A DNA stretch of 64,000 nucleotides from a virus (taxonomy: Duplodnaviria > Heunggongvirae > Uroviricota > Caudoviricetes): the IMG/VR virus record IMGVR_UViG_3300035696_001272, one strand, 5' to 3'. Shown piece by piece: positions 1 to 15,506 of this stretch (within the stretch, counting starts at the first letter, position 1; each line of letters opens with the position of its first letter). A program made the position numbers and the translations under genes. The notes beneath the pieces were generated by a model. The model saw only the letters and a program-made list of their open reading frames with translations, made no database searches and was not told the DNA's origin.

Positions 1-1
1 T

Positions 2-289
2 AGCACCAAGTCCATCAACTATTGTGATGTCAAGGGCTCTTATTGGGCACAAGGCAGCAACAAGACCGCTTATTTGTTCTTAGGTGATGTGGCCTTCGGT
101 AATCAGAAGATTGCTGGCGGGTCTCATATGTATACCAAGAACAATATCAAACCAAACCACTCTGTGTGGGCTAAGTCTGGTGGATCTTCTGGATTGTACA
201 ACGATGAGTTGATTACCTACACTGCCACTGGTCCCGAGCAACAACACGCTATCCGCTATATCATTGAATTCGAAACTCAGGTGAAGTGA
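2..289 (+). CDS. PARP-family ADP-ribosyltransferase, C-terminal catalytic fragment (5' end lies upstream of the window)
   Basis: Frame is open from the window edge. STKSINYCDV..LFLGDVAFGN..HSVWAKSGG..LYNDELITYT..YIIEFE parallels the PARP1 C-terminus (SKSANYC..LLGEVALGN..HSVKGLG..LLYNEYIVYD..YLLKLKF), including the catalytic Glu. Confidence 0.6.
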   Translation, partial: STKSINYCDVKGSYWAQGSNKTAYLFLGDVAFGNQKIAGGSHMYTKNNIKPNHSVWAKSGGSSGLYNDELITYTATGPEQQHAIRYIIEFETQVK

Positions 290-660
290 TGCCTCGCTAT
301 ATTGTTAAGTTGACTGAAGACGACAAGTCTTGGTATATGGAATGGTCTACTGTCGTAGATGCTCCTCGCACTTTCGGTATGTCTTTGGAAGAATTCAAAG
401 AATATTATAAGGAGGAGTACGGCCGGTCTTCATTGCAAGAGCTTGAGGACAGACTCAAACGTGTTGAGGAAAGAGGAACTAGCTGTATGCTTGATAAATC
501 GGCTGAGGATACTATTTCCTGGAACCGAGCTGGCAAAGACGAAACCAATCTTTCCATAAAACAAATCATTGATTTCTACTGTAAATTGCCAGAACTCAAA
601 ACTGATGAAGAGTTTAAGGCTTATGAAGAAACCAAACCAAGAGGCAAGAAACATGGTTGA
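286..660 (+). CDS. hypothetical protein
   Basis: ATGA overlap with the upstream stop; 124 aa; coiled-coil-like segment; no recognisable motif. Confidence 0.45.
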   Translation: MMPRYIVKLTEDDKSWYMEWSTVVDAPRTFGMSLEEFKEYYKEEYGRSSLQELEDRLKRVEERGTSCMLDKSAEDTISWNRAGKDETNLSIKQIIDFYCKLPELKTDEEFKAYEETKPRGKKHG

Positions 661-970
661 AATATTGCAGGGAGAATTAGTTTACCTTTTCGAAGGTCGT
701 GGCGACGTTGATCAAACTGAAGGCCGTGGCGGCACTCGATGTGTTGGATGGTATCTTTCTCGTAAAGATGCTGAAAACGCCGTTAAGAATGAAGGTGTAA
801 TGGGTACACCTGGCTATGTCAAATCTCATCAGGCACTTGCTGTACGAATGGATAATGGCGATTTTCAATACTACAAAATTGAAAAGCTGGAAGTTGAAAC
901 TGTGGAAACCGCTCGTCAACGTGCGCTGGCCAAGCTAACTCCAGAAGAGAAGAAATTATTGGGCTTATGA
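653..970 (+). CDS. hypothetical protein
   Basis: ATG at 653 is in frame within the 569..970 ORF and avoids most of the overlap; no motif. Confidence 0.4.
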   Translation: MVEILQGELVYLFEGRGDVDQTEGRGGTRCVGWYLSRKDAENAVKNEGVMGTPGYVKSHQALAVRMDNGDFQYYKIEKLEVETVETARQRALAKLTPEEKKLLGL

Positions 971-1446
971 TTGAAATAGTAACGGGTGATCTTTTCGAAG
1001 CCACTGAAAAATATCTTTGTCATCAATGCAATTGTGTGACTAACAAGGCCGCACACTTAGCAAAAGATATGTTCGAGAAGTTCCCACATTCTGACATCTA
1101 CACTGCACGCACCGAAGCTGACAAGCCCGGTCATATCATCATTCGTGGTGATGGTCAGAATGAAAGATTCGTTGTCGCTTTACTCGGTCAGTATTATCCC
1201 GGTCGACCAAAGTACCCTCTTTCCAATTTAGATGGTTCTGCGGTTCGCGAGAAATACTTCTACCGTTGCTTGCTGCGCCTGGCCAAAGTGCCCGACTTGG
1301 AAAGTATAGCATTCCCCTGGCGCATTGGGTGCGGTGCGGCAGGTGGTGATTGGGAACATTACCTTGGCAATATTACTAACTTTGCTCAATATGTTGGTGA
1401 AAAAGGAGTCAAAGTGCGTATTTACAGGCGTGAGGGAGACGAGTAA
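967..1446 (+). CDS. macro domain protein, TARG1/OARD1-like (ADP-ribose glycohydrolase family)
   Basis: ATGA overlap; MIEIVTGDLFEA..LCHQCNC...FPWRIGCGAAGGDWEHY matches the OARD1 pattern GDLF..HC..C...PRIGCGLD.L.WE. Confidence 0.6.
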   Translation: MIEIVTGDLFEATEKYLCHQCNCVTNKAAHLAKDMFEKFPHSDIYTARTEADKPGHIIIRGDGQNERFVVALLGQYYPGRPKYPLSNLDGSAVREKYFYRCLLRLAKVPDLESIAFPWRIGCGAAGGDWEHYLGNITNFAQYVGEKGVKVRIYRREGDE

Positions 1447-1757
1447 TGTCCAAAGCATACATATCGAACAAGTCAGTGGGTAAACTCATATCAGAAACAC
1501 AAGACAAAGCTCTTGCCCGTTTAACTATAGATCCTACGCTACTCTTCGACTATTATGTGTCCCTCACGGTTTACGATTGTGGTGGAACCTGGCAAGCCTG
1601 GTTGGATTATGGAAAATCAGGCGAGAAACCTACACACGAAGTTGTCGTTGATGGCCGAGAATATGTAGAAGGTAAAACGTTGCGAGGAGCTATTATCAAG
1701 TTGCGAAAACAAGTCCTTGATAAAGATATCTCGATCTCAATAAGGAGACACAAGTAA
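1446..1757 (+). CDS. hypothetical protein
   Basis: TAATG overlap; 103 aa; no motif. Confidence 0.4.
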   Translation: MSKAYISNKSVGKLISETQDKALARLTIDPTLLFDYYVSLTVYDCGGTWQAWLDYGKSGEKPTHEVVVDGREYVEGKTLRGAIIKLRKQVLDKDISISIRRHK

Positions 1758-2189
1758 ATGGCAATCAAATTCTATCGTACCAAAGACCCTTATGGTTTCC
1801 TTGGAAACTATTACCGAGCCCGAATGTTCATTTATGGGCGCTGGTGGAATTGGAATGAACAGCCTTACCAGGCCGCTAAGACTACCGTTCAATCTGAGAT
1901 TGATGCTATCTGGGCGGCTCCGAAGGCCAATGAGTCTCGCCTTTTGGGACAAAAAGTAACCATGCGCCCCGATTGGGATCAAGTCAAACGTCAGGTTATG
2001 AAAGAGTGTTGCATGGCTAAGTTCTTGCAACATCCAGAATTGCGTAAGCAGCTAATGGAAACTGGTGACCAAGAACTTATTGAAGACTCCCCGGTAGATT
2101 GGTATTGGGGAATTGGCGCTGATGGTAAAGGCCAAAATGTGCTCGGCCAAGTTTTAATGGAGATTCGAGAGGAGTTAAAAGGTGAGTGA
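1758..2189 (+). CDS. NADAR (YbiA-like, DUF1768) domain protein
   Basis: TAAGGAGA RBS; FLGNYY..WNWNEQPYQAAK...RPDWDQVKRQVM...DSPVDWYWGIGADGKGQNVLGQVLMEIR matches the NADAR signature (EHAYQAAKF...DW...D..WG.G.DG.G.N.LG). Confidence 0.65.
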   Translation: MAIKFYRTKDPYGFLGNYYRARMFIYGRWWNWNEQPYQAAKTTVQSEIDAIWAAPKANESRLLGQKVTMRPDWDQVKRQVMKECCMAKFLQHPELRKQLMETGDQELIEDSPVDWYWGIGADGKGQNVLGQVLMEIREELKGE

Positions 2190-2388
2190 ATTAGCTCTTA
2201 GATTTTTACAGCTTGTTGAAGATACTAAAAATCTATGTAAAGAAACTGGTTGCAGCATAGGTCTGATCAAAGCTATCCCAGAGTCTATTTATGAGGAAGT
2301 AAGGCCATTTTTAGAATGTGGATGTCTAGATTATGTTGAATTAAATGAAGATGGCAAGAAACTTTTAGAGTCACCTCCCGCCCCTTGA
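2182..2388 (+). CDS. hypothetical protein
   Basis: GTG start after a GAGGAG RBS; 68 aa. Confidence 0.3.
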   Translation: MSELALRFLQLVEDTKNLCKETGCSIGLIKAIPESIYEEVRPFLECGCLDYVELNEDGKKLLESPPAP

Positions 2389-2434
2389 CTTTTATTTTTA
2401 AAGATACAAATTACACAAATTAGGAGAAATTACA

Positions 2435-2917
2435 ATGGCAAATTTAGAAGATACAGTTCGTTCAGTCGTGCAAGATTTTATCAAGAATGAGGTTTTGTTT
2501 ACGGCATTGGACGTAAGCAATGCGGTCAAACAGGCACTTCCACACGCTAAGCATCGTGAAGTGAGAGACGTGGTTCGTGCAATGTTCACCACAGATATCG
2601 AGACCCAAGGTTGGGCTCGTACACCAATCTCCGTTACCTTAGCAGATGGTTCTCAGGCTGATGCCCTATTGTATCATCCATTGGTTGATTCCTGGGATTT
2701 GGATGCCAAGTATGATGACCAGAAGCGCAAGTCTTTTGCTTTCCGTCCAGCCGCTGCTGCCCAAGCAACGCTTGCTCGGGCACAAGCTCAAGCACAAACC
2801 GTTCCTGCCCCAGCACCAGTTCCAACTGTTGTTCCAGCTCCAGCTGCTCCAGCTTCAGCACGCTCAATGTGGGATAATCTTTTCAAGACACAACCGTCTA
2901 TCTTCCCAAAGAAGTAA
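2435..2917 (+). CDS. hypothetical protein with Ala/Pro/Gln-rich low-complexity tail
   Basis: AGGAGA RBS; 160 aa; AQAQAQTVPAPAPVPTVVPAPAAPA tail. Confidence 0.45.
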   Translation: MANLEDTVRSVVQDFIKNEVLFTALDVSNAVKQALPHAKHREVRDVVRAMFTTDIETQGWARTPISVTLADGSQADALLYHPLVDSWDLDAKYDDQKRKSFAFRPAAAAQATLARAQAQAQTVPAPAPVPTVVPAPAAPASARSMWDNLFKTQPSIFPKK

Positions 2918-2919
2918 TC

Positions 2920-3147
2920 ATGCAAGCTAAAATGCAGAGCAGGATTAAGTCTGTCAAAAGACTTCCTGACGATTCGACTGTAGAATTGGAATTCATGGGT
3001 AAAGTGACCAATACTACACTCATCAATGCCAAGGATATCAAAATGACCGCTAGTCTATCACTCAAAACTGCTCTGGCCGACCAGATCAGAGTTGGTTCCG
3101 TGATTACAATCACTCTAAGTGATGAAGAGCCAGAAAAGGTTGACTGA
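2920..3147 (+). CDS. hypothetical protein
   Basis: 75 aa; tight junctions. Confidence 0.35.
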   Translation: MQAKMQSRIKSVKRLPDDSTVELEFMGKVTNTTLINAKDIKMTASLSLKTALADQIRVGSVITITLSDEEPEKVD

Positions 3148-3862
3148 AATGGGAAGCGTTTACGTTGTAGTTGCTACACGCGATGAAGAAATTGAAAATT
3201 GTGAAACCTTTGCCGGTGTGCAGTCAGCATTAGGCAGAGCTTTCCAGTTAGCTACCAACAAGGCTGGTAGTGTCAATAGTGATTGGGTTATTACCTCACC
3301 CAGTGAAGAGACAATGCCTGATGGCTCCATTCGCTGGACTTTCATGGACACATCTAAACAAAAGGTCATGGTTTTCTATCGCAAGATTGAGGAATCTCTT
3401 TTGTCTCAGAAGGACCCCATGAGTTTCTTGGGTGGTCTTAGCAATACCAAAGATGTTCCAAGAGATGTAGTGCCAGCAGGTCATCTTGATCCGATGCAGA
3501 GTTCTTTTTCAAGTAAGTACTTTGTAGTGACACTCGTGCCTCCATATGAATTTATGGATCCTACCTTACCTGTTGGATGGTTTCTTGATAACAAGCCAGC
3601 TGTAATGCAGGATTTACTCAATCGACCCTTTGACGTTAAAGATCCTGCATGGCTCTCTGATGATCAAAAATGGGCACTGGTAACGGCTCGTGTGCGCAAA
3701 TCTCCAGGGTTCCTAACTGATATTGGTGGTGGCCTCAATCAGCAAGAGTCTCTGCTTGAGTTTAAGAACAAAACTCTAGATGGTGAATTGATTAGGGACG
3801 AAGAGATCGATGGCCTTCACGAACTTCGTGAAGCTCTAATAAACGATACTGACCACGCTTGA
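3119..3862 (+). CDS. hypothetical protein (the start may be the ATG at 3149)
   Basis: 247 aa open frame; no motif. Confidence 0.45.
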   Translation: MMKSQKRLTEMGSVYVVVATRDEEIENCETFAGVQSALGRAFQLATNKAGSVNSDWVITSPSEETMPDGSIRWTFMDTSKQKVMVFYRKIEESLLSQKDPMSFLGGLSNTKDVPRDVVPAGHLDPMQSSFSSKYFVVTLVPPYEFMDPTLPVGWFLDNKPAVMQDLLNRPFDVKDPAWLSDDQKWALVTARVRKSPGFLTDIGGGLNQQESLLEFKNKTLDGELIRDEEIDGLHELREALINDTDHA

Positions 3863-4474
3863 TTATCGCTTTTCTGATTTGGTTACTTCTTGTTGACCGG
3901 CTCTAAAATCAGGAATAACTGTCATCGTCTGTTGAAGACGAGGTGGTGGCAATTGTGCTGAGACTGGTGGTTCAATCAAAGGATGTTGGACCATGAATTG
4001 TCTAGTGCGCGTGGCTAAAGCTTTCAATCTATCCAAGCTACGCATTTCAGGATGTTGTAGCATTGGGCCAGCTGTAAAATCTACATTGGTCAGTAGTAAG
4101 TGTTGCTTAGCCAGAAAATCTAGGTTGTCTATGATGGAGCTGCTAGGTTTTTCCAAAACTAGTTGAACCAATTTTTTAGCGCCATCATATGGCTTCTCTC
4201 TGTTGAGTTCCCTAATGATTGCGTGCAGTTCTTGATAAACTTTGATCAGCATCTTCATCATTTTGGCGTCAAGTTGTCGCTCTCTCAACACAACTATTTC
4301 CCCACCCAATTCGCCAGTTATAGCACGAAGAGAGTCATGAAGTTGTTCATAGAATTTGTCCAATAAGGCGCGTTGTGTTTTATATGCTACACTAGGGGCA
4401 GGTAATTGGCCAGTAATTTCATCAGCCAATGACACAAATTGGTCAATCATTTTACAGACTTTTTCATGGGACAT
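3863..4474 (-). CDS. hypothetical protein (lone minus-strand gene)
   Basis: 203 aa ORF exactly fills the gap between plus-strand genes and starts with ATG (MSHEK). Confidence 0.4.
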   Translation of the reverse strand: MSHEKVCKMIDQFVSLADEITGQLPAPSVAYKTQRALLDKFYEQLHDSLRAITGELGGEIVVLRERQLDAKMMKMLIKVYQELHAIIRELNREKPYDGAKKLVQLVLEKPSSSIIDNLDFLAKQHLLLTNVDFTAGPMLQHPEMRSLDRLKALATRTRQFMVQHPLIEPPVSAQLPPPRLQQTMTVIPDFRAGQQEVTKSEKR

Positions 4475-5126: not shown

Positions 5127-5330
5127 ATGTCTACTTTTAGTGAAGCTAATCAGGTTCGTCTCGCCCTGAAAATGAAATTATCCCAGTACTCGTGGTATAG
5201 TTCCAGCAGGATTTTTCCAGTTGATGATGGTTTTGGTATCATTGTTGGTGTCAGACATCTAGACAACTCAATTCGTAAACTGGTGGCACCAGTTATCGAT
5301 GGTATTACAGTTAAAACAGAGTTAGAATGA
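5127..5330 (+). CDS. hypothetical protein
   Basis: GAGG RBS; 67 aa. Confidence 0.35.
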   Translation: MSTFSEANQVRLALKMKLSQYSWYSSSRIFPVDDGFGIIVGVRHLDNSIRKLVAPVIDGITVKTELE

Positions 5331-6037
5331 AGATTCAACGTATTTCAGATAAGTTTGTTAGGAATTTCAAAATGCGCATTTGCCACATTAGTGACACACA
5401 TGGACAATTTCCAAGACTGTATGGGCGCTACGATGTAGTTGTTCATACTGGAGATCTGTTCCCGAATAGTCACAATGTTGGCCAAAACTTGGCAAAAGAG
5501 CAAGCCTTTCAGCTTCAGTGGCTGCGTGATTCCATGGGTGAGATTAAACAGTGGCTACAAGGGCGCACGCTCTTATATGTCCCAGGTAACCACGACTTTT
5601 TGGATTCCAGTTTGATGGAATTCGAAATGCACAAAGCTGGTCTGGAAGCCTTTGATCTAACAGATAAAATGCTTTCCTACAACGACGTCAACTTTTTTGG
5701 ATTCCCTTATGTTCCCGCCATCAATGGTATGTGGAACTATGAGAGGGAGATTCCTGAAATGGAAAAAGAAGTAGAGAAGTTAGTGGCAGCATGTAACGAT
5801 CAACACATCGATGTGCTGGCTTGCCACGCCCCTCTTTACAAGAGTCTTGATCTTTCTATGGGCAATCAGATTTTGGGTAGCTCCGTAATCTCTAATGCCC
5901 TGGATTACAAGGTTGCAAGGGACATGATGCCCTCCTATTATCTGTGCGGTCATATCCATGAAGCTAATGGAATAACTGTGCGTAATGGTATGGTAATTAG
6001 CAACGCTGCTACTACTAGGCATATAATCGAGGTTTAA
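5327..6037 (+). CDS. calcineurin-like metallophosphoesterase
   Basis: ATGA overlap; ICHISDTHG...VVHTGDL...GNHD...GHIH metallophosphatase motifs. Confidence 0.65.
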   Translation: MKIQRISDKFVRNFKMRICHISDTHGQFPRLYGRYDVVVHTGDLFPNSHNVGQNLAKEQAFQLQWLRDSMGEIKQWLQGRTLLYVPGNHDFLDSSLMEFEMHKAGLEAFDLTDKMLSYNDVNFFGFPYVPAINGMWNYEREIPEMEKEVEKLVAACNDQHIDVLACHAPLYKSLDLSMGNQILGSSVISNALDYKVARDMMPSYYLCGHIHEANGITVRNGMVISNAATTRHIIEV

Positions 6038-6400: not shown

Positions 6401-6715
6401 ATGAACATTAAGACTAAAGCCAAAGAATGGCTAATTCAACACGAGCATTACGAACATGAACCATCGTTCAACGATGATTTGGAAAGTCTATCAAAGCTAA
6501 TCGAGAGTATTGCGTATTATGAGGGCGTCCTTTCTGATGAGCCCGAATATGATGAAACATTTGGTGATAACAAAACTTGTGAGTGTGGCTGCGCATATTA
6601 TCGCCATTTCGACACTTATTCTAATATGGATGCTGTTGGTTGCAAATATTGTTACCATGGCGATCACTATGGTGACAATTGTTGTGCTGGTTTCAGAGAA
6701 AGAAAAGAAGCGTGA
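6401..6715 (+). CDS. hypothetical Cys/His-rich metal-binding protein
   Basis: CECGC..C.YCYHGDHYGDNCC. Confidence 0.4.
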   Translation: MNIKTKAKEWLIQHEHYEHEPSFNDDLESLSKLIESIAYYEGVLSDEPEYDETFGDNKTCECGCAYYRHFDTYSNMDAVGCKYCYHGDHYGDNCCAGFRERKEA

Positions 6716-7197
6716 TTGTTGCATTCACTGGCCACAGACCAGATAAGTTGGGAGGTTACAAGGTACCCAATCCAATGTACATCAAGGTCTGCAGAGAAAT
6801 TGACAAGGTTCTAAGGGAGCTGAAGCCAGAGAAAGTTATCACTGGAATGGCTTTGGGTGTGGATCAGTGGGCAGCCATGATTGCTCACAAGATGGAGATT
6901 CCATTCCTTGCCGCCATCCCTTTTGAAAAGCAAGAGGCCAAATGGCCTGAGCAAAGCCAAAAGACTTACCGTCTTTTACGCAAGCTAGCCTCGGAAGAAG
7001 TTATCGTAAGTCCTGGCGGTTATTCTGCCGACAAAATGCAGACTAGAAACAAGTGGATGGTGGACCATTGTGATAAACTTATCGCAATATGGGATGGATC
7101 TTCTGGTGGCACCGGCAATTGTATCAATTATGCGAAATCTATTAAAAGGGAAATCATTTATATCGATCCCAAAGCCACTACTACAACTGGAGTGTAA
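6679..7197 (+). CDS. YpsA/DUF1273-family SLOG-superfamily protein
   Basis: VIVAFTGHRP..GVDQWAAMIA..IPFEKQEAKWPEQSQKTYRLL..NKWMVDHCDKLIAIWDGSSGG parallels B. subtilis YpsA (TGYKP..GVELWAAEAA..ITPFYEQEKNWKEPNKEQYEAVL..NQWFIDKSDGLLLLYDPEKEGS). Confidence 0.55.
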   Translation: MLCWFQRKKRSVIVAFTGHRPDKLGGYKVPNPMYIKVCREIDKVLRELKPEKVITGMALGVDQWAAMIAHKMEIPFLAAIPFEKQEAKWPEQSQKTYRLLRKLASEEVIVSPGGYSADKMQTRNKWMVDHCDKLIAIWDGSSGGTGNCINYAKSIKREIIYIDPKATTTTGV

Positions 7198-8430
7198 ATG
7201 AGCACTTATCAGCCTAATAAATTCCGTGTTTATTCAAAGCAAGACGTAGCAAGACTAAAAGGTTCTTTTGATATCGAATATACGCTCGCCAAGATGGGCG
7301 CTAACAGATTATGGCAACTATTCAATACGCAGCCATATGTTAAAGCCTTAGGAGCATTAACTGGAAATCAAGCCGTTCAACAGGTGAAAGCTGGATTGGA
7401 TGCCGTTTATCTTTCTGGTTGGCAAGTGGCAGCTGACGCTAATCTGGCCGGTCAAATGTATCCTGATCAATCCTTGTACCCTGCCAACAGCGTCCCTAAT
7501 GTGGTTAAGAAGGTCAATTCGGCTCTAATGAGGGCTGATCAGATTGAACATTCTGAAGGCGGTACACAAAGATATTGGATGGCTCCTATCATCGCTGACG
7601 CAGAGGCCGGCTTTGGTGGTCCTCTTAATTCATTCGAATTAATGAAGGCAATGATTGAAGCTGGAGCTGCTGGCGTTCACTTTGAAGACCAACTATCCTC
7701 TGAGAAGAAGTGTGGACATATGGGTGGCAAAGTTTTAGTCCCCATGTCTCATTTTATCAAGTCTTTGGTAGCAGCCAGGCTAGCCGCTGACATTTGCGGC
7801 ACTGATACCATTATCGTGGCTAGAACAGATGCCGACTCTGCTAAACTCCTGACTTCCAACATTGACGAAAAGGATTTACCATTTATTCTTTCAGATATTC
7901 GTACAGAAGAAGGATTTTACAAAATCAAAAGTGGTATGGAGTATTGCGTAGCCAGAGGCTTAGCCTTTGCCCCATATGCCGACATGCTTTGGATGGAAAC
8001 TTCCACTCCAGACATTGGACAGGCCAAAGAATTTGCCCAAGAGATTCATAAACAGTTTCCTAACAAACTTTTGATGTATAATTGTTCTCCTTCTTTCAAT
8101 TGGAAGAAAAACTTGACCGAATCTCAAATTGCCTCTTTCCAAGATGAATTAGGTTCATTTGGCTATAAATTCCAGTTCGTTACCCTGGCTGGCTTTCATG
8201 CTCTAAATCATTCCATGTTTTCTTTATCCAAGAATTACAGAGAGCAAGGCATGACTGCTTATGCCGCTTTACAAGAACAAGAGTTCGAGAACGTGGCCGC
8301 TGGATATACTGCCGTAAAACACCAACATGAAGTTGGTGCTAGTTATTTTGACGAAGTTTCCAAACTAGTTTCGGGTGGCTCTAGTGCTACCGTTGCTTTA
8401 GAGGGATCTACTGAAGAAAAACAATTCTAA
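7198..8430 (+). CDS. aceA: isocitrate lyase
   Basis: 410 aa; KKCGHMGGK signature; long colinear identity with E. coli AceA ([58 protein letters not shown]). Confidence 0.9.
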
Positions 8431-9947
8431 TGTATGTGCAAGATATAGACAAATATAGTGTCGTATTGACTGACGAAGCAATCAATTTTGTAGTAGATTT
8501 AGTAGAAAAGTTTTCTCCTAGAGTCAAATCAATATTAGGGCTGCGTCAGCTTATGGCTGGTAAAAGGCCCAGTTTCTTAGCTTATTCCTCTTATATTCGA
8601 GAATCTGATTGGACTGTTGCACCATTACCAGCGGACCTATTAGATAGGCGAGTTGAGATTACTGGACCAACAGATCGCAAGATGATCATCAATGCACTCA
8701 ATTCTGGTGCCAATGTTTTCATGGCCGACTTGGAGGACTCTAATTCTCCAACCTGGGAAAACATGATGCAAGGTCAGATTAATTTGATGGATGCCGTCCG
8801 TCGCACTATTATCTTTACTTCTGAAGCAGGTAAGCTCTATCAACTCAATGAAAAGACTGCTGTTTTAATGGTAAGGCCACGAGGCTGGCATTTAGTAGAA
8901 AAACATTTTCTGGTCAACGATCAGCCTATTCCAGGCGCTTTGTTAGACTTTGGGCTGTACTTTTTCCATAATGCCAAAGAGTTGATGGCTCGTGGTACCG
9001 CTCCATATTTTTATCTTCCCAAGATGGAAAATCATCTGGAGGCCAAATTATGGAACGATATTTTCACATACGCTCAAGCTAAGCTTGGTATTCCAGTTGG
9101 AACCATTAAAGCTACTTGCCTAATCGAAACTATTAGTGCTGCCTTTGAAATGAATGAAATCTTATGGGAATTGAAAGATCATTCGGCTGGCCTCAATTGT
9201 GGTCGTTGGGATTACATTTTTAGCTTCATTAAGAGATTTGCCAAAGATCCAAATTTTATCCTGCCAGATCGTTCTCAGTTGACCATGGACAAGGGCTTTC
9301 TCAATGCTTACGTTCGTCTCTTAATACAGACCTGTCATCGAAGAAATGTGCATGCTATGGGTGGAATGGCGGCGCAAATCCCCATTAAAAACGATGAGAT
9401 GGCAAATAAGAAAGCTCTTGCTAAAGTGGCTTCCGACAAAATGCGTGAGGTTCAGGCCGGTCATGATGGTACTTGGGTCGCTCATCCTGGATTAGTTTCA
9501 TTGGCCCGTGATATTTTTGACCATGATATGCCTGCATCTAATCAAATACAGAAGATACCTAGCTATGTTGTAACAGAAGCGGATCTGTTAACAGTTCAAG
9601 AAGGAACCTACACCGAAGAAGGCTTGCGACACAATATTAGGGTAGGCGTTATTTATTTAGAATCTTGGTTGAATGGAAATGGTTGCGTGCCAATATATAA
9701 TCTAATGGAGGACGCGGCCACAGCAGAACTGTCTCGCGCCCAGGTTTGGCAAGGCATCTATCACCAGGTTATAATAGGTGACAAACCATTAACCAAGGAG
9801 CTTTTCTTACAGATTCTTGATGAAGAAATGAATAACATTCAAAAGGGCAATCGCTTCTTAGAAGCCCGCGAATTATTTATTAAATTATCAACGGCCCCAG
9901 AATTTGAAGAATTTCTTACACTTATAGCTTATAATAACTTGACATAA
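8430..9947 (+). CDS. aceB: malate synthase A
   Basis: TAATG overlap; 505 aa; FMADLEDSNSPTW, YFYLPKMEN, GTIKATCLIET, GLNCGRWDYIFS, GGMAAQIP, GHDGTWVAHPGL, EDAATAELSRAQVWQ colinear with E. coli AceB. Confidence 0.9.
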   Translation: MYVQDIDKYSVVLTDEAINFVVDLVEKFSPRVKSILGLRQLMAGKRPSFLAYSSYIRESDWTVAPLPADLLDRRVEITGPTDRKMIINALNSGANVFMADLEDSNSPTWENMMQGQINLMDAVRRTIIFTSEAGKLYQLNEKTAVLMVRPRGWHLVEKHFLVNDQPIPGALLDFGLYFFHNAKELMARGTAPYFYLPKMENHLEAKLWNDIFTYAQAKLGIPVGTIKATCLIETISAAFEMNEILWELKDHSAGLNCGRWDYIFSFIKRFAKDPNFILPDRSQLTMDKGFLNAYVRLLIQTCHRRNVHAMGGMAAQIPIKNDEMANKKALAKVASDKMREVQAGHDGTWVAHPGLVSLARDIFDHDMPASNQIQKIPSYVVTEADLLTVQEGTYTEEGLRHNIRVGVIYLESWLNGNGCVPIYNLMEDAATAELSRAQVWQGIYHQVIIGDKPLTKELFLQILDEEMNNIQKGNRFLEARELFIKLSTAPEFEEFLTLIAYNNLT

Positions 9948-9954: not shown

Positions 9955-10041
9955 GCCATTGTGGCGGAACAGGCAGACGCGCTGGTCTCAAAAATCAGTG
10001 TCCGCAAGGACGTGTGGGTTCGACTCCCACCAATGGCACCA
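9955..10041 (+). tRNA. tRNA-Leu(CAA), type II, encoded CCA
   Basis: Acceptor GCCATTG/CAATGGC; anticodon stem CTGGT/ATCAG with loop CTCAAAA; long variable arm; T-arm GGGTTCGACTCCC; architecture as E. coli tRNA-Leu. Confidence 0.8.
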
Positions 10042-10072
10042 AGATTCTTGATTTATATTATAGGAAGGTCAT

Positions 10073-11473
10073 ATGGCTGATAAAGACGTTCAGGTCTGGA
10101 GAGAAGGCTCTTCAGGCGAACCCAAGTTTCCAGTTAAGTTTGATGTTCTGAAGAAAGCAATTCTTCAAGTAACTGATATCGGTACCAATCGTAATAAGTA
10201 TTATGCCATCGAGTTACATGAGGCTGGTAACAAATACCGAGTCTATACTCATTATGGACGAACGGACGATTTAGATTCTAATCCTGATGCTGGCATTCGT
10301 GAATGTCGTTATCCAGTAAATCTAATTCATGCTGAGAATTTGTATGAAAAGATTTACAAAGAGAAAACTTCTGCTCGTAAAGGTTACAAGGAATTAAATG
10401 TGGCTTCAGCCAAAATTGGTTCCAAACAAACTCTTGGTAAGAGTAGCGGTGAAGTAGACGACAAGACTCTCAAGAAGATGGCTAAAGTTCAGGCAACTGT
10501 AGTCAAAGATGCAGCTCCACCCGTTGCTATTCCTAAAGAGGTTCAGAAGCTAGTTACTCATTTATATGATGAAGCAACTAAGACACTGACTAAAAAGGTT
10601 AATGCTACAATTACCGCTAACGGTATCGAAACTCCTCTTGGTGTTTTGACAATCGGCCAGATCGAAAAGGGCGAAAAGATTCTAGAAGAAATTGCATCTT
10701 CCCTCAAAAAGAAAAACGATGTTCTCTCTAATTTGAGTGGGCAATTCTACACGGTTATTCCCCATAAATTGGGACGTTCTAAAATTGATGTTTTAGATGC
10801 CATTATCAATACAACATCCAAAGTTAAGGAAAAAGAGGATACCTTGCAACTCATGCGAGATATGCTTAACGTAAGCGGTAAAGGCGCAAACGTTTTAGCC
10901 AATCCCAAAGTTGAAAAGCAGTATCTGGCCCTCGGTTGTGAAATTGGTTACCTGGATAAAAACCATGACGATTTCAAGAAGATCAAATCTTCTGTTAAGG
11001 GTTACAGTAACTCTATCAAAAACATTTTCACCATAAAGAGACCTGACGAGCACAAAGCCTTCACCACCAACATTTCTAACCATAAACTCTTGTTCCATGG
11101 TTCTGGTGCCCACAATTGGGTTGGTATTCTGTCTCGTGGCTTGATGTTACCAAAGATGGTCACTAAATTTGGAGTTCATCGTACTGATGAGGGTTGGTTA
11201 GGTCACGGCATTTATTTCGGAGACGTTATCGACACCGCTCTAAATTATGCTTCCAGCGGTAAATTAGACTCTACTTTCGTAGCCATTGCTAAAGTGGCTT
11301 TAGGCAAGATTAAGAAATACAAAGTAGTTACTTATGGTTTAACTTCTCCTCCAAAGGGATACCATAGTTGTCATGGTGACCCAACTGGATATTCAGAGTT
11401 TGATGATCATGAATTTGTTATCTATGATACGAAACAGCAGCGTTTGGAGTATTTACTAGAACTCGACTGGTGA
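10073..11473 (+). CDS. PARP-like ADP-ribosyltransferase (WGR - helical regulatory - catalytic domain)
   Basis: GGAAGG RBS; WGR-like NKYYAIELHEAGNKYRVYTHYGRTD; helical-domain LSGQFYTVIPHKLG; catalytic HGSGAHNWVGILSRGL, GHGIYFGD, HEFVIYD (H-Y-E triad). Confidence 0.7.
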   Translation: MADKDVQVWREGSSGEPKFPVKFDVLKKAILQVTDIGTNRNKYYAIELHEAGNKYRVYTHYGRTDDLDSNPDAGIRECRYPVNLIHAENLYEKIYKEKTSARKGYKELNVASAKIGSKQTLGKSSGEVDDKTLKKMAKVQATVVKDAAPPVAIPKEVQKLVTHLYDEATKTLTKKVNATITANGIETPLGVLTIGQIEKGEKILEEIASSLKKKNDVLSNLSGQFYTVIPHKLGRSKIDVLDAIINTTSKVKEKEDTLQLMRDMLNVSGKGANVLANPKVEKQYLALGCEIGYLDKNHDDFKKIKSSVKGYSNSIKNIFTIKRPDEHKAFTTNISNHKLLFHGSGAHNWVGILSRGLMLPKMVTKFGVHRTDEGWLGHGIYFGDVIDTALNYASSGKLDSTFVAIAKVALGKIKKYKVVTYGLTSPPKGYHSCHGDPTGYSEFDDHEFVIYDTKQQRLEYLLELDW

Positions 11474-11477
11474 AGAC

Positions 11478-11939
11478 ATGAATTTAAGAAATTTGTTGAC
11501 CTTGACAATTCAAAGATTAAGTTTTAACTTGGTTGCTCAACGTCCCGGCCTCGTGGAAGAACTCCGCAAATTAACTATAGAGCCATTCTCAGGAATGAAT
11601 CATGAGTTAAATTGGATGCTTAGAGAGGCTAAAGAGCGAGAGATTGATTGCGATATATTTTTAGCTTATCGCTCTCAAAGTCTAGTCGGTTGGGCACTCT
11701 TGTCAAAAGAAGACACTGATTTCGTCTTTGCCAACTCTTATGAGCCTTTCAGGTCTGAAAATGGTTGGCTCTTTCAAGTGTTCATTGACCCTGACCATCG
11801 GAGACAAGGAATTGCCTCTGAACTGTTAAAGAGAGCCCAAAATCTAATTGGAGACGGCACCCTTTGTATCTGTCCCTGGGACGAAGTAAGTAGAGGGTTT
11901 TACAGTTCACTCAATCTTAGTAATGCGAGACACTTATGA
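11478..11939 (+). CDS. GNAT-family N-acetyltransferase
   Basis: FQVFIDPDHRRQGIASELLKRA motif A. Confidence 0.55.
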   Translation: MNLRNLLTLTIQRLSFNLVAQRPGLVEELRKLTIEPFSGMNHELNWMLREAKEREIDCDIFLAYRSQSLVGWALLSKEDTDFVFANSYEPFRSENGWLFQVFIDPDHRRQGIASELLKRAQNLIGDGTLCICPWDEVSRGFYSSLNLSNARHL

Positions 11940-12511
11940 TATACAACACCATTGAAGAACTGGCCAAATATCTAGAAAGTTATAATTTGCCTTATAGGCA
12001 TCTTGTAGCAACGTCTGGCGGCTTCGATCCCATTCACATCGGGCACTTACGCTGCATCCAGCAATCCAAGCAAAGTCTTCACGATATTTTGGTAGTGATT
12101 GTTAACGGTGATGGATTCCTCACTCGTAAGAAGGGTAAGCCCTTCATGCCTCTTGCTGAGCGTATGGAGATAATTGATGGCCTTCGTGGTGTTGATTTTG
12201 TCACCACTTGGGATGATGGCTCACAGAATGTTATAGGTGCCCTGGAAATTCTAAAACCACATCTTTTCGCTAAGGGTGGTGATAGGTCTTCGGCTGATAA
12301 GGTTCCCGAAGCTGAAGTTTGCGCCAAAATTGGTTGCACGATTTTGTATGGTGTTGGTGGAACTGATAAGGTTCAATCAAGTAGCAACCTTATCAAAAAC
12401 TCAAAAGAAGATAAAATCAAATATCTTGATCCTAATTGTGAACATAATTGGGTATTGGATGGACATAATGCTGGTGAAGGCATTTGCTCCAAGTGTTTGA
12501 AGAGAGAATAA
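11936..12511 (+). CDS. cytidylyltransferase-superfamily nucleotidyltransferase, HldE/RfaE domain II (heptose-1-P adenylyltransferase)-like
   Basis: ATGA overlap; GGFDPIHIGH (HxGH); VNGDGFLTRKKGKPFMPLAERMEIIDGLRGVDFV and FAKGGD...SSSNLIKN parallel E. coli HldE C-domain ([36 protein letters not shown]...VKGGD...STTNIIKK). Confidence 0.55.
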   Translation: MIYNTIEELAKYLESYNLPYRHLVATSGGFDPIHIGHLRCIQQSKQSLHDILVVIVNGDGFLTRKKGKPFMPLAERMEIIDGLRGVDFVTTWDDGSQNVIGALEILKPHLFAKGGDRSSADKVPEAEVCAKIGCTILYGVGGTDKVQSSSNLIKNSKEDKIKYLDPNCEHNWVLDGHNAGEGICSKCLKRE

Positions 12512-12525
12512 AACATAGCAATAAT

Positions 12526-12535
12526 CTGATATATA
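12526..12535 (+). promoter_or_regulatory. extended -10 element CTGATATATA upstream of the tRNA-Leu cluster
   Basis: TGnTATATA 11 nt before the first tRNA; an identical 10-mer recurs at 15488 before the second tRNA cluster. Confidence 0.4.
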
Positions 12536-12546
12536 CAACACACAAT

Positions 12547-12630
12547 GCTACCGTGGTGGAATGGCAGACACGCTGGTCTTAGAAGCCAGTGCCGCGAGGC
12601 GTGAAGGTTCGAGTCCTTTCGGTAGCACCA
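12547..12630 (+). tRNA. tRNA-Leu(UAG), type II, encoded CCA
   Basis: Acceptor GCTACCG/CGGTAGC; anticodon loop CTTAGAA; long variable arm. Confidence 0.8.
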
Positions 12631-12633
12631 ATT

Positions 12634-12720
12634 GTTCATGTGGTGGAATGGCAGACACACTAGTCTCAGAAGCTAGGGTCCGTAAGGACATTGAGGGTTC
12701 AAGTCCCTCCAGGAACACCA
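12634..12720 (+). tRNA. tRNA-Leu(CAG), type II, encoded CCA (A-G mismatch at acceptor pair 5-68)
   Basis: Acceptor GTTCATG/CAGGAAC; anticodon stem CTAGT/GCTAG with loop CTCAGAA. Confidence 0.7.
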
Positions 12721-12726
12721 AAATAT

Positions 12727-12813
12727 CTCATCGTGGTGGAATGGTATACACACTAGGCTGAGAACCTAGGGCTCGAAAGGGCCGTGAGGGTTCGAGTCCC
12801 TCCGATGAGACCA
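12727..12813 (+). tRNA. tRNA-Leu(GAG), type II, encoded CCA
   Basis: Acceptor CTCATCG/CGATGAG; anticodon stem CTAGG/CCTAG with loop CTGAGAA. Confidence 0.75.
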
Positions 12814-12824
12814 AGGAAGTTATT

Positions 12825-13109
12825 ATGTTATTCGATGAATTCTGTGAATGTCGCTGCCATACAAGCGGCAATATCAAGTATATTGTAGCTTGCTGCCATA
12901 CTTGTTCTTATTGTCATAAGAAAGTTAAGACGCATGCTTATGTTGAACATCAAAAGGAATGTTCTGATAAGCACGATCCAAAAATAAATGGTGTGCGACT
13001 AACAGAGATTCTAAGTGCTCTCAAAACACTTGAAGATGCCGATATTGATATCACTAGCATCAGCGCTCAGGTTAGCAAGTTATTTGCCAGCGCATTGAGC
13101 GAAGAATAA
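12825..13109 (+). CDS. hypothetical Cys-rich zinc-finger protein
   Basis: AAGGAAG RBS; CECRCH...CCHTCSYCH. Confidence 0.4.
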   Translation: MLFDEFCECRCHTSGNIKYIVACCHTCSYCHKKVKTHAYVEHQKECSDKHDPKINGVRLTEILSALKTLEDADIDITSISAQVSKLFASALSEE

Positions 13110-14057
13110 TCAGAATCCAGGTCCAAAGTCACCAGGCTTGCGCTGTTGTTGCCGTTGTTGCTGGGGCTGTTGTGCTTGTTGTTGCTTTTGCTTTTGTCTC
13201 GTATTCATGTAGACATTAGCATTATCATCATAGACCATAGCTTTTCCAGTAGCAAACTCAGGTTCACGCTTCAAATACTCAAAGGCTAATTCGTTGCTTA
13301 TGCCCGGATTATCTACGCTTTTCTTATAGATATCTAATGCGGACTGTGTGATGTGGCCTAATGCTCCATCTGTGTTTACTCCCAACATAGCCTGAAACTT
13401 TTTGTCAATTGGCGGATACTTTGACTTATGTTGTTGGGCCACAGGTGCCTGTTGCACTTTTGGAGGCATTATATTCACGTTACTGAACATTGTAGGAATG
13501 CCGCCACCAAACCATGGAGTTGGAGTTTGTTGCGTCTGAGCTTCTTTTACAGACCCACTTTTAACTTTTTTTTTAGAAAGATCGCATCCGATCTTGTGCT
13601 CTAGGTGCTCTAGATCAAGACCTTTGCCGCCACACTCTGGACACCTTGCTTCAGGCATAAAATTGGCGTACTTAGAAAGCAACAAGTCAATTTCCTCAAA
13701 AGAAGACTTTTTAGACTTCTTATCACTCTTACCAATAGATGGATACTTAGAATGAACTTTACGGCTTACCAAAGCTTGTAATCCCTTTAGAGAGCCCTTG
13801 TACCATTCTGGCACAGAGCTATATTGATGAACACGAGCTAAAGCATTACGTGCTTGATCTTCGTCATTAATTGGAAAATGATCTTTTTTATCCTTAGCTG
13901 ATTCAGCTGGTACACAGACAGTTCCTCTATTACGGACCTTAGCCTTTGGATCTAGCTTCTTCTTTTCCTTTTTCTTAGCTGTGGCAAGCAAGGATTCAGT
14001 AGCTAAATGTTCATAATTTACGGCCATTTTAATTAATTGGTCTGGACTGTAGGACAT
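13110..14057 (-). CDS. hypothetical protein (Lys-rich with Gln-rich C-terminal tail; CPECGGKG knuckle)
   Basis: 315 aa minus-strand ORF starting with ATG (MSYSP) between two plus-strand genes. Confidence 0.45.
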   Translation of the reverse strand: MSYSPDQLIKMAVNYEHLATESLLATAKKKEKKKLDPKAKVRNRGTVCVPAESAKDKKDHFPINDEDQARNALARVHQYSSVPEWYKGSLKGLQALVSRKVHSKYPSIGKSDKKSKKSSFEEIDLLLSKYANFMPEARCPECGGKGLDLEHLEHKIGCDLSKKKVKSGSVKEAQTQQTPTPWFGGGIPTMFSNVNIMPPKVQQAPVAQQHKSKYPPIDKKFQAMLGVNTDGALGHITQSALDIYKKSVDNPGISNELAFEYLKREPEFATGKAMVYDDNANVYMNTRQKQKQQQAQQPQQQRQQQRKPGDFGPGF

Positions 14058-14102
14058 TAAAAACCTCGATATATTCTGTATACTAATAATTAGGCAATAT
14101 TA

Positions 14103-14636
14103 TTGCTACATTTATGGTGTTCATTCGTGGTTGCATTTAATAACGAAGAAAGTTTGTTAGCTTGGGCAGCGGGCCTGTTCGATGGTGAAGGAACCATTTA
14201 TTCTGCTAATGGTAGGGTTAGAGCTTCTGTGCATATGACTGACCTTGATGTATTAGAAACTTTTCATTCTAATTTCGGTGGAGCCATACATAAATGTAAG
14301 AAGCAAAAAGAACATCATAAGGAATCTTGGCGATGGTCATTACAAGCCTCTAGTGAGGCCGTGAATTTTCTGAAAAAGATTTTACCGTTTTTACATAATC
14401 GAAGGACAAAGAGAGCAAAAGAAGCGATAGAATACTATAACATAGTGGAACAGCAACAAAAAGACAAACAAGGTAAAGTATTAGAGTTAAGAAGTAAAAT
14501 TGCAAAAATGAGTAAAAGTGGTATGACGCACAAGGACATATCAATATTATTCAATGTAGATAGAAGTTATGTAACACGTATTTTGAATGGAAAATATGGT
14601 GATGTGAGGGAGCTGGTTGAACCCGGTACTCTGTGA
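14103..14636 (+). CDS. LAGLIDADG-type homing endonuclease with C-terminal HTH (non-ATG start; exact 5' end uncertain)
   Basis: LLAWAAGLFDGEGTIYS LAGLIDADG-like motif; C-terminal GMTHKDISILFNVDRSYVTRIL HTH; the 3' end overlaps tRNA-His. Confidence 0.5.
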   Translation: MLHLWCSFVVAFNNEESLLAWAAGLFDGEGTIYSANGRVRASVHMTDLDVLETFHSNFGGAIHKCKKQKEHHKESWRWSLQASSEAVNFLKKILPFLHNRRTKRAKEAIEYYNIVEQQQKDKQGKVLELRSKIAKMSKSGMTHKDISILFNVDRSYVTRILNGKYGDVRELVEPGTL

Positions 14637-14675
14637 AAGTATCTCTGACGGGATCGTAACCCGTACATCACCCCA
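14598..14675 (+). tRNA. tRNA-His(GUG) with encoded G-1 and CCA
   Basis: G-1 then acceptor GTGATGT/ACATCAC; discriminator C; anticodon stem GTACT/AGTAT with loop CTGTGAA; T-arm ACGGGATCGTAACCCGT. Confidence 0.75.
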
Positions 14676-14678
14676 ACT

Positions 14679-14752
14679 GGTCTGTTCGTCTAATGGTAGG
14701 ACAAAGCGCTTTCAATGCTTGAACAGGAGATCGATACTCCTACAGATCACCA
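14679..14752 (+). tRNA. tRNA-Glu(UUC), encoded CCA
   Basis: Acceptor GGTCTGT/ACAGATC; D-arm GTCTAATGGTAGGAC; anticodon stem AAGCG/TGCTT with loop CTTTCAA. Confidence 0.75.
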
Positions 14753-14974: not shown

Positions 14975-14979
14975 TAAAC

Positions 14980-15463: not shown

Positions 15464-15487
15464 AGTAATAAATCGCCTACTAATAAG

Positions 15488-15497: not shown

Positions 15498-15506
15498 GGA
15501 TACACT

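Follow-up and report, generated by a model that had tools for sequence, protein, structure and literature searches.

A run of genes in phage DNA of 64,000 nt (IMG/VR record IMGVR_UViG_3300035696_001272; the whole stretch is called the window) encodes the end of a PARP-type ADP-ribosyltransferase (PARP-A), a macrodomain protein and a NADAR domain protein, and appears to be the core of a NAD+/ADP-ribose gene island conserved in one clade of huge phages. The explanation that we favor, tentatively and at a little less than an even chance, is a break-sensing PARP with a nearby ligase, accompanied by two hydrolases that would mainly strip ADP-ribose marks or metabolites imposed by the host. PARP-A is a PARP1-3-like enzyme in which a WGR domain, the DNA-break sensor, and an autoinhibitory helical domain precede an ADP-ribosyltransferase (ART) domain with the H-Y-E triad. 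Nucleic-acid breaks would most likely switch it on; the active enzyme would then use NAD+ for ADP-ribosylation of itself, of proteins close by or of phosphorylated DNA ends, in a break-handling module to which the NAD+-dependent DNA ligase LigA, encoded 2.6 kb upstream, would also belong. The two downstream hydrolases would each act on different linkages, i.e., the macrodomain on Glu/Asp-, phosphate- and ring-nitrogen-linked ADP-ribose and on ADPR-1''-phosphate, and the YbiA-type NADAR on exocyclic N-glycosidic links such as guanine-N2-ADP-ribose. Their main job may be to clear phage DNA or RNA of ADP-ribose attached by host defences (DarT2-type on thymidine, DarT1-type on guanine), or else to deal with products of NAD+ breakdown (RES-type ADPR-1''P); a further role of the macrodomain could be to reset marks left by the PARPs of the phage itself. 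Break activation, the substrates and this division of labor are what we infer for the island.

The domains and catalytic residues of the proteins, the fold class, the overlaps between the genes and the conserved order of the genes were established directly. A preliminary description, made from the sequence alone, had placed three ADP-ribosylation genes on one strand within positions 2-2189, and all three are there on the + strand: the 3' end of the PARP-A gene (2-289), the gene for the predicted macrodomain hydrolase (159 aa, 967-1446) and the NADAR gene (143 aa, 1758-2189). Interleaved with them, also on the + strand, are three ORFs without assigned function on which that description was silent. 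The first, orfA (123 aa, 289-660; no family match), begins at an ATG that overlaps the PARP-A stop codon (TGATG), the GTG at 286 given in the ORF list not being the real start; its position is not conserved in most related contigs. The second, orfB (105 aa, 653-970; phrog_5370, function not assigned), overlaps orfA by 8 nt and the start of the macrodomain gene by 4 nt (ATGA), and the third, orfC (103 aa, 1446-1757; no family match), has a start codon overlapping the macrodomain stop codon (TAATG). The last ORF of the overlapping run is orf68 (68 aa, 2182-2388, +; no assigned function), directly followed by a 46-nt AT-rich spacer. The ORF junctions in the run, all seven, overlap or abut, and overlapping start and stop codons imply co-expression; no terminator-like site was found on the + strand from 1 to 4180, and promoter and terminator scans gave sites no more numerous than in shuffled sequence. 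The genes of the run are probably co-transcribed.

Further downstream on the + strand lie orf160 (2435-2917; no assigned function, with an Ala/Pro-rich tail), the clade-wide conserved downstream neighbor of the macrodomain/NADAR pair, and two genes of the conserved island backbone encoding a calcineurin-like phosphoesterase (Metallophos, 5327-6037) and a YpsA-type SLOG domain protein (6679-7197). Proteins of the YpsA-type SLOG family are predicted to bind, or to act on, derivatives of ADP-ribose (PMC9503650). A second PARP gene (PARP-B, 10073-11473) is directly followed by genes for a GNAT acetyltransferase (11478-11939) and a cytidylyl/adenylyltransferase-fold protein (11936-12511). An assignment of the last protein (191 aa) as NMN adenylyltransferase was rejected, the nearest NCBIfam model being RfaE domain II, with scores under every cut-off.

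The window contains only residues 406-500 of PARP-A (95 residues and the stop codon by translation), and this fragment matches the Pfam PARP profile at E=0.034 only. It had been described as the C-terminal catalytic end of a PARP carrying the catalytic Glu, with the suggestion that upstream extension would recover the N-terminus. The 5' part was obtained from the same genome on ENA contig ERZ27256985 k141_1283505 (188 kb), a JGI contig and a Logan contig, and the complete gene encodes 500 aa (L001:8499-10001). Full-length PARP-A is above the Pfam cut-offs for WGR (59 bits, cut-off 22), PARP_reg (74 bits, cut-off 26.8) and PARP (67 bits, cut-off 26.7), as is PARP-B (32, 63 and 100 bits, respectively), a second complete WGR/PARP_reg/PARP paralogue of 466 aa with an intact H-Y-E triad, which is 29% identical to PARP-A and is present in only some related contigs. 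Human PARP1 WGR-CAT matches PARP-A at 3e-30, in an alignment that takes in the HG...GIYFA...SKSANYC block. An alignment with three other phage PARPs shows no variation at His367, Tyr401, Tyr412 and Glu474 of PARP-A; of these residues, the window covers just Tyr412 (nt 20-22) and the catalytic Glu474 (nt 206-208). The WGR positions invariant in the phage PARP alignment (N34, N36, K37, Y39, G58, R59, K88, K91, G92 and Y93) fall within three high-coevolution stretches (N34-Y39, Y57-G61 and K88-Y93) that have been tied to the DNA-dependent activity of bacterial PARPs (PMC5966428), a point in favor of a break-activated PARP-A. Bacterial WGR-PARPs with this architecture are DNA-dependent polymerases (PMC4245714, PMC5966428).

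Judged by their domains and the H-Y-E triad, PARP-A and PARP-B are assigned to clade 1 of the PARP family (PARP1-3-like ARTD). [quoted passage not shown] The proteins studied here differ from these in being phage-encoded and in occurring as two paralogous copies; PARP-A is only 23-27% identical to its bacterial relatives and carries ~35 additional residues that separate its helical and ART domains. A PARG partner was not seen either: the PARG signature GGG-X6-8-QEE, strict or relaxed, has no match in any of the six frames translated from the window, L001 and L114 (84 kb), and a PARP-PARG reversible poly(ADP-ribose) system was rejected for the 84 kb on that ground.

PARP-type transferases are rare in phages, with matches at E<=1e-3 in 16 of 50,697 phage records. 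The preliminary description was right that they are not a standard phage feature, but they are not unheard of: phage PARPs, mostly with WGR and a regulatory domain as here, had been noted in genomic surveys (PMC4245714, PMC7824862). Phage Macro/NADAR pairs, too, are already known from genomic surveys. Among the phages noted for PARPs, Xanthomonas phage XacN1 (BBA65562.1), Cellulophaga phage phi4:1 (gp031), Klebsiella phage FBKp34 (gp111) and Aeromonas phage Aeh1 are likewise large phages with PARP-family ARTs. The identity with these earlier-noted proteins is 24-44%, over parts of the protein only, and none of their records carries two PARPs. No macrodomain or NADAR gene is annotated within ~4.5-6 kb of the PARP gene in XacN1 and phi4:1; FBKp34 has a homologue of the macrodomain 3 kb upstream of its PARP and no annotated NADAR in the region viewed.

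At 22 unrelated phage PARP loci, which represent lineages not wholly independent of one another, the families most often encoded within 3.5 kb of the PARP gene are ATP-dependent DNA ligase, at 6 loci, and RNA ligase, at 5, and one further locus has LigA; a macrodomain was found near 2 of the 22 and NADAR near none. The cultured phage phi4:1 has its PARP gene, then one ORF, then a DNA ligase gene. As a control, the 25 commonest neighbor families of 19 macrodomain-centered loci include no ligase family. The 51 bacterial PARP loci contained no close relative and yielded few informative neighbors with the seed set used, namely LigA at two loci and an Adpp-like macrodomain at one. The PARP-ligase association could simply reflect placement of the PARP gene in a phage DNA-metabolism module. 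No experimental test of any phage PARP was found in the literature searched.

The family profiles singled out for comparison in the preliminary description gave scores above threshold for full-length PARP and for NADAR, whereas the macrodomain scored under the Pfam Macro threshold. It has the macro fold, and its nearest structural neighbors are in the ALC1-like class (TARG1/DarG/Poa1p); it belongs to this TARG1-related class. The earlier name "TARG1-like" stands to that extent, but the Lys84-Asp125 catalytic dyad of TARG1 is missing, and the protein is not TARG1/OARD1 in the strict sense. In an L-INS-i alignment, Gln75 occupies the position of TARG1 catalytic Lys84, and Ala125, within the motif R119-I-G-C-G-A-A-G-G127, that of Asp125; Gln75 is invariant among 24 family members and Ala125 nearly so. 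The family of each of the three proteins was nevertheless named correctly in the preliminary description. A pairwise HMMER alignment with DarG that put the catalytic Lys opposite Ser86 was dropped, because Gln75 is the counterpart of this Lys both in the multiple alignment and by the strand pattern of the structural model.

Within the class, the macrodomain falls in the SCO6735/Bt_1257/Adpp-like subclass, its GQY and RIGCGAAGG aligning with GQH and RIGCGLAGG of Bt_1257 (the SCO6735 sequence itself was aligned over the C-terminal part only). The RIGCGxAGGxW motif, Gln in place of the catalytic Lys and a long loop after this Gln are shared with SCO6735 and Bt_1257 (PMC9411070). Identity to Bt_1257 is ~24%, and the loop (residues 76-95), which exceeds those of TARG1 and DarG in length and is poorly ordered in the structural model, is longer still than in SCO6735/Bt_1257 and has the family-specific invariant residues P84, S86, D89 and G90. 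SCO6735 removes DarT-made thymidine-ADPr as well as protein ADPr, and the Gln at that position is essential (PMC9411070).

The macrodomain belongs to Phrog_335, which is labelled "phosphatase", and this label favors an explanation that we consider unlikely, in which the macrodomain would be an Adpp/Poa1p-like ADPR-1''-phosphate phosphatase and the NADAR a YbiA-type N-glycosidase whose substrates are soluble ribosyl compounds, either ADPr-derived immune signals or reactive riboflavin intermediates. The two enzymes would safeguard the NAD+ pool and silence signals of the host, with no tie to macromolecular ADP-ribosylation or to PARP. In the same direction, and also toward the ADPR-1''P processing that is part of the favored explanation, points a homologue in Vibrio phage Thalassa (28% identity over the full length, pairwise E=4e-14) that is located between Adps and Namat, since the protein at the same operon position in Vibrio phage Gary is an ADPR-1''P phosphatase that defeats aRES (bioRxiv 10.64898/2026.01.28.702374). 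The macrodomain is in the same PHROG as Adpp, the macrodomain ADPR-1''-phosphate phosphatase of the phage NARP1-AP pathway (Vibrio phage Gary), it shares HQCNC, GQY and IGCGxAGGDW with the Thalassa protein, and phage Adpp has the same Gln/Ala solution at the Lys/Asp dyad positions as SCO6735/Bt_1257. However, 28% is a low identity, and the macrodomain gene studied here lies downstream of PARP, not between Adps and Namat, neither of which was detected by tblastn with Thalassa queries in the window, L001 and L114 (84 kb) or near any macrodomain homologue of the clade; identification as the Adpp of NARP1-AP by operon context was rejected for want of these neighbors. Tpt1/KptA was not seen in the window either, and SCO6735, active on DNA and protein, is a member of the same subclass.

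The NADAR protein is placed in the YbiA subfamily of the NADAR superfamily, as the preliminary description had it. It matches Pfam NADAR (PF08719) at 2e-34 and 119 bits (cut-off 35.1), E. coli YbiA (2b3w) at 6e-24 and TIGR02464, riboflavin biosynthesis intermediates N-glycosidase, at 117 bits (cut-off 73.7), the last of which counts against the favored explanation and, like the SLOG gene 4.5 kb downstream, suits an action on soluble metabolites. Its conserved residues Glu34, Lys41 and Glu109 correspond in alignment to E43, K50 and E125 of the P. nicotianae NADAR (8bau), and the catalytic residue of the last strand is of the Glu type, not Asp or His, by the subfamily rule of PMC11125620. Like E. 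coli YbiA, it is a bare YbiA-fold domain that retains the catalytic Glu, the Lys and the last-strand Glu; it differs from the DarT1-linked NADAR (Asp type) and from T4 gp30.3 (His type) (PMC11125620). It differs from the DarT1-linked NADAR also in its surroundings, which hold the macrodomain and PARP genes and no adjoining DarT or YarT toxin gene. No ART match was found among the adjacent small ORFs, and a DarTG-type toxin-antitoxin module was rejected, the sole ART in the run being a PARP with WGR and regulatory domains. In vitro, both YbiA-type NADARs and those of phages are active in the removal of guanine-ADPr, which supports the favored explanation; against it, neither E. coli YbiA nor T4 NADAR rescues from DarT1 toxicity in vivo (PMC11125620).

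The order PARP-A, macrodomain, NADAR is kept in ~25 of ~28 related huge-phage contigs (IMG/VR loci of up to 0.45-0.5 Mb), despite turnover of the intervening small ORFs and gaps of 0.1 to 2.9 kb, and LigA lies upstream of PARP-A in all related contigs with enough flank. The homology E-values together with the conserved gene order rule out chance. This persistent linkage to PARP-A is left unexplained by an action of the hydrolases on soluble metabolites. The tight block is equally compatible with a closed cycle, a possibility that we regard as rather doubtful, in which PARP-A (and PARP-B) would write and the macrodomain and NADAR would be dedicated erasers of a single reversible signalling or capping module. 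The operon-like overlaps, the homologue near the FBKp34 PARP and the macrodomains near 2 of the 22 unrelated phage PARPs agree with it, and PARP-made protein, DNA-end and base marks are substrates that TARG1-class macrodomains remove (PMC8385414; bioRxiv 10.64898/2026.03.31.715305). Against it, NADAR does not remove PARP15-made guanine-N1-ADPr, and no PARP product is known as a NADAR substrate (bioRxiv 10.64898/2026.03.31.715305). In addition, three contigs (L056, L057 and L080) have PARP-A and the macrodomain without an adjoining NADAR and a fourth (L061) has a fragmentary one; another (L082) retains the macrodomain and NADAR beside a truncated PARP-A; more distant macrodomain homologues occur without PARP, with no recurring partner seen in their neighborhoods; and the 84 kb examined lacks the PARG signature. 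The order is confined to one clade, outside which the three families were not found together, and the region had no hit among 50,697 phage records in megablast and blastn searches; there is no close cultured relative among them.

The synteny block extends to genes unrelated to a three-gene unit (LigA, orf160, Metallophos, SLOG and GNAT), and the conservation of LigA and orf160 in it means that the synteny may be descent of the backbone and not selection for the three genes together. Taken to its end, and together with the restriction of the trio to the clade, this would make them independent accessory genes without shared function, side by side through block inheritance, which we think very unlikely: the assignable genes of defined function in the first 12.5 kb (LigA, two PARPs, macrodomain, NADAR and SLOG) all concern NAD+ or ADP-ribose, a concentration that is improbable without functional selection, and the overlapping start and stop codons imply co-expression. 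In large phages, Macro, NADAR and SLOG co-occur without PARP (PMC9503650), which fits a PARP-independent role of the hydrolases. The Macro-NADAR-SLOG neighborhoods of large DNA viruses (Iyer, Burroughs, Anantharaman, Aravind 2022; PMC9503650) have the same stand-alone genes together in an RNA-repair-rich accessory region, and the clade differs in the addition of one or two PARP writers and a NAD+-dependent ligase; a keyword search of that survey for PARP and WGR found no mention of such a combination.

The preliminary description had offered a self-contained signalling cycle or a toolkit that modifies host targets while erasing defensive ADP-ribosylation. Of these two, the toolkit that also erases defensive marks agrees better with what was observed. 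The three-gene order is limited to one clade, and a ligase is the recurrent PARP neighbor elsewhere. A variant in which the phage's cycle runs on nucleic acids is, in our estimate, distinctly unlikely: break-activated PARP-A (with PARP-B) would cap phosphorylated DNA or RNA ends or modify bases and so protect, mark or block the phage or host genome, the macrodomain would take off phosphate- and ring-nitrogen-linked marks and NADAR exocyclic-nitrogen-linked ones, and the ligase could then seal the break.

A partnership of PARP and ligase is known from eukaryotic break repair. The recurrence of ligases beside PARPs in unrelated phages suggests that this partnership is older and wider than assumed. 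The clade offers a compact and conserved test bed, with one or two intact PARPs, two predicted hydrolases of complementary chemistry and a ligase. If the hydrolases are counter-defence enzymes, as we favor, they would jointly counter immunity of the DarT1, DarT2 and RES types; if the nucleic-acid cycle is true, the island would be a viral, ligase-coupled writer/eraser system that works on nucleic acids, not on proteins.

The first 2400 nt of the window carry seven tightly packed ORFs on the plus strand: the 3' part of PARP-A, a PARP-family ADP-ribosyltransferase gene cut by the window start (2-289), orfA (289-660), orfB (653-970), a macrodomain ORF of 159 aa (967-1446), orfC (1446-1757), a NADAR ORF of 143 aa (1758-2189) and orf68 (2182-2388). 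All six junctions overlap or abut (in order, TGATG, 8-nt overlap, ATGA, TAATG, 0 nt and 8-nt overlap), and a scan of the window found no terminator-like site on the plus strand before position 4181; the PARP, macrodomain and NADAR genes thus lie within one operon-like run. The preliminary description placed these three ADP-ribosylation genes in a single run, which holds, except that three small unknown ORFs (orfA, orfB and orfC) are interleaved. Promoter-like sites did not exceed their frequency in shuffled sequence.

The 95-residue PARP-A fragment in the window gives a weak Pfam match by itself (E=0.034). An exact-protein look-up located the same genome on three contigs (ENA, 188 kb; JGI; Logan), which supplied the missing upstream part; extension over locus L001, as the preliminary description had proposed, gave a complete PARP-A of 500 residues (L001:8499-10001). 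Full-length PARP-A exceeds the Pfam threshold for each of its domains, WGR (59 bits), PARP_reg (74 bits) and PARP catalytic (67 bits), and the closest solved structures are the WGR-CAT constructs of human PARP1 (3e-30) and PARP2 (1e-25). In an alignment of PARP-A, the paralogue PARP-B and the PARPs of Klebsiella phage FBKp34 and Xanthomonas phage XacN1, the residues His367, Tyr401, Tyr412 and Glu474 are invariant. The H-Y-E residues are therefore kept and the earlier PARP family call is borne out, as is its catalytic Glu, which is Glu474 (GAG, window 206-208). PARP relatives in bacteria (Myxococcota and Planctomycetota) are distant, at ≤27% identity. Bacterial PARPs with the WGR/PARP_reg/PARP architecture are DNA-dependent polymerases (PMC4245714, PMC5966428), and the WGR positions invariant in the four-PARP alignment (N34, N36, K37, Y39, G58, R59, K88, K91, G92 and Y93) fall within stretches tied to DNA-dependent activity (PMC5966428).

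PARP-B (10073-11473, plus strand) is a complete paralogue of 466 aa with WGR, PARP_reg and PARP domains and an intact H-Y-E, and shares 29% identity with PARP-A. A tRNA-Leu gene precedes it, and GNAT and nucleotidyltransferase genes follow; it is present only in some related contigs, inserted there between SLOG and GNAT. Two PARP matches were not seen together in any cultured phage record of the collection searched.

Around 22 unrelated phage PARP loci the recurrent neighbour is a ligase (ATP-dependent DNA ligase in 6, RNA ligase in 5, NAD+-dependent LigA in 1), at about 0.4-3.7 kb from the PARP (L081-L111, L112); in Cellulophaga phage phi4:1 the DNA ligase is one gene away. The ligases belong to three non-homologous types (ATP-dependent DNA ligase, Rnl-type RNA ligase and LigA). 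No ligase occurred among the 25 commonest neighbour families of macrodomain-centred control loci, and LigA was nearby in 2 of 51 bacterial PARP loci. This adjacency is suggestive of a real association rather than proof of one, because the phage loci are partly non-independent and phage replication genes cluster regardless. One of these loci, L081 (3811-6146 and 8001-9386), has Nudix and NAMPT/Namat-like (NAD+ synthesis) genes about 2 kb upstream of the PARP, so that NAD+ supply and consumption are encoded side by side; 2.8 kb downstream of the PARP lies an RNA ligase.

The macrodomain matches phrog_335 ("phosphatase", 1e-16). Its homologues number 233 among cultured-phage records and 376 among metagenomic protein clusters, in some cases on contigs as long as 511 kb. 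A predicted structure built on 24 family members has the macro fold (pLDDT 78.5), and the family profile picks up Bt_1257, DarG and SCO6735 at the sequence level; on these grounds the protein is assigned to the ALC1-like, TARG1-related class. The TARG1-like macro domain of the preliminary description is therefore right as to class; a TARG1 mechanism is not retained, as the catalytic residues are replaced. A multiple alignment that includes TARG1, DarG, Bt_1257 and three homologues from phages places Gln75 opposite TARG1 Lys84 and DarG Lys80, and Ala125 opposite TARG1 Asp125; across the family Gln75 is invariant and Ala125 nearly so. This is the arrangement of SCO6735 and Bt_1257. SCO6735 requires the equivalent Gln85; it strips ADP-ribose from proteins as well as from DarT-modified thymidine (PMC9411070). 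A Vibrio phage Thalassa protein, 28% identical to the macrodomain and itself matching TARG1 (9e-10), is encoded exactly between Adps and Namat, two NARP1-pathway genes that carry the annotations ribose-phosphate pyrophosphokinase and nicotinamide phosphoribosyltransferase. In Vibrio phage Gary, the macrodomain at the Adps-Namat position is Adpp, a phosphatase of ADPR-1''-phosphate that overcomes RES-type NAD+ depletion (bioRxiv 10.64898/2026.01.28.702374). The subclass thus has two proven activities, between which sequence alone does not discriminate for the window macrodomain. Purely small-molecule clean-up, for which Adpp is a precedent and which is also backed by the view taken in PMC9503650, would require no nucleic-acid or protein target; we consider it improbable, since the Adps and Namat partners were not found in the 84 kb examined.

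The YbiA-like NADAR call is upheld: the protein passes Pfam NADAR (2e-34) and NCBIfam TIGR02464 (117 bits, cut-off 73.7), E. coli YbiA matches it at 6e-24, and Glu34, Lys41 and Glu109 align with catalytic E43, K50 and E125 of a Phytophthora NADAR. The YbiA subfamily is defined by a last-strand Glu, which is Asp in DarT1-linked NADARs and His in T4 gp30.3; YbiA-type and phage NADARs remove guanine ADP-ribose in vitro, yet failed to rescue cells from DarT1 toxicity (PMC11125620). A guanine-N1 mark written by PARP15 is removed by TARG1 and not by NADAR (bioRxiv 10.64898/2026.03.31.715305).

The order LigA, PARP-A, macrodomain, NADAR, orf160 (2435-2917) is kept in about 28 related contigs whose PARP-A proteins are 53-83% identical, with varying small intervening ORFs and a PARP-macrodomain gap of 96 nt to 2.9 kb. 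The exceptions are a NADAR absent from L056, L057 and L080 and fragmentary in L061, a truncated PARP-A in L082, and the most divergent locus, L074, which has neither hydrolase. The linkage is conserved within this clade and dissolves outside it: around macrodomain homologues below 50% identity, neither a PARP nor a NADAR lies within 8 kb and no neighbour recurs, and at the 22 unrelated phage PARP loci no NADAR was found and a Macro at only two, although in FBKp34 a macrodomain homologue is encoded 3 kb upstream of the PARP. The 84 kb examined contained no PARG signature. The strong linkage within the clade, together with the reversal of PARP products by TARG1-class enzymes (PMC8385414), speaks for the main rival reading, the closed writer/eraser cycle raised in the preliminary description, which we nevertheless judge unlikely, given the loose phyletic coupling and a NADAR without any known PARP substrate.

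The window derives from a very large phage; related IMG/VR contigs measure 0.43-0.5 Mb, and DNA searches of phage records found no close cultured relative. The upstream contig flank encodes LigA and a Metallophos phosphoesterase, and, at L001:1675-2742, a phenylalanyl-tRNA-synthetase-like protein, Thg1 and an HD_4 (PF13328) protein. Downstream of the run are, in order, Metallophos (5327-6037), a YpsA-type SLOG (6679-7197), the glyoxylate-shunt enzymes isocitrate lyase and malate synthase, back to back (7198-8430 and 8430-9947, plus strand), tRNA-Leu, PARP-B, GNAT and nucleotidyltransferase. By this gene content, the first 12.5 kb and the upstream flank form an NAD+/ADP-ribose island. The isocitrate lyase/malate synthase pair also occurs in related L019/L020 and is absent from many other related contigs.

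The plus strand also carries 11 tRNA genes (4 Leu, His, 3 Glu, 3 Arg) arrayed with small ORFs in between (9955-16283), tyrosyl-tRNA synthetase (17951-19144) and a dense RNA-repair set (33297-43959) of two PNKP-like kinase/phosphatase genes (33297-34217, 34804-35799), three RNA ligases (36843-37604, 38293-39540, 42227-42892) and a terminal Metallophos (43237-43959), with an HSP20 (39643-40092) in their midst. Between the last ligase and this Metallophos, an 88-aa ORF (42981-43247, plus strand) has a precomputed Pfam match to PF26761 ('Acb5'), which we take from its name to be an anti-CBASS family. On the minus strand, a long cluster of sugar-nucleotide and glycan genes (44818-61869) suggests that the phage directs glycan synthesis or modification; it holds several epimerase/dehydratases, two DegT aminotransferases, methyltransferases and three glycosyltransferases, one of them an 802-aa fusion. 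Fe-S assembly genes (two Fe-S_biosyn proteins, one NifU_N) and thioredoxin are scattered (regions of 24302-24838 and 27131-27790; 61935-62375), and the window end cuts off a second Thg1 that begins at 63436.

PARP genes were listed in a few phages in 2014 and 2021 (PMC4245714, PMC7824862), and a 2022 study describes co-occurrence of Macro, NADAR and SLOG in large phages (PMC9503650). A limited literature search found no description of a clade-wide island of one or two intact WGR-PARPs, an SCO6735/Adpp-like macrodomain, a YbiA-type NADAR and LigA, of two PARP paralogues in one phage, or of the ligase adjacency of phage PARPs. Domain content, catalytic residues, fold class and synteny are established by the analysis. 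The reading we tentatively prefer, at slightly under an even chance as a whole, infers substrates and division of labour from characterised relatives: PARP-A would be an ADP-ribosyltransferase activated by breaks and functionally paired with the ligase in nucleic-acid break handling, and the macrodomain and NADAR would be hydrolases of complementary bond specificity that mainly strip host-imposed ADP-ribose from phage nucleic acids or process NAD+ breakdown products, while the macrodomain may also reset PARP marks.
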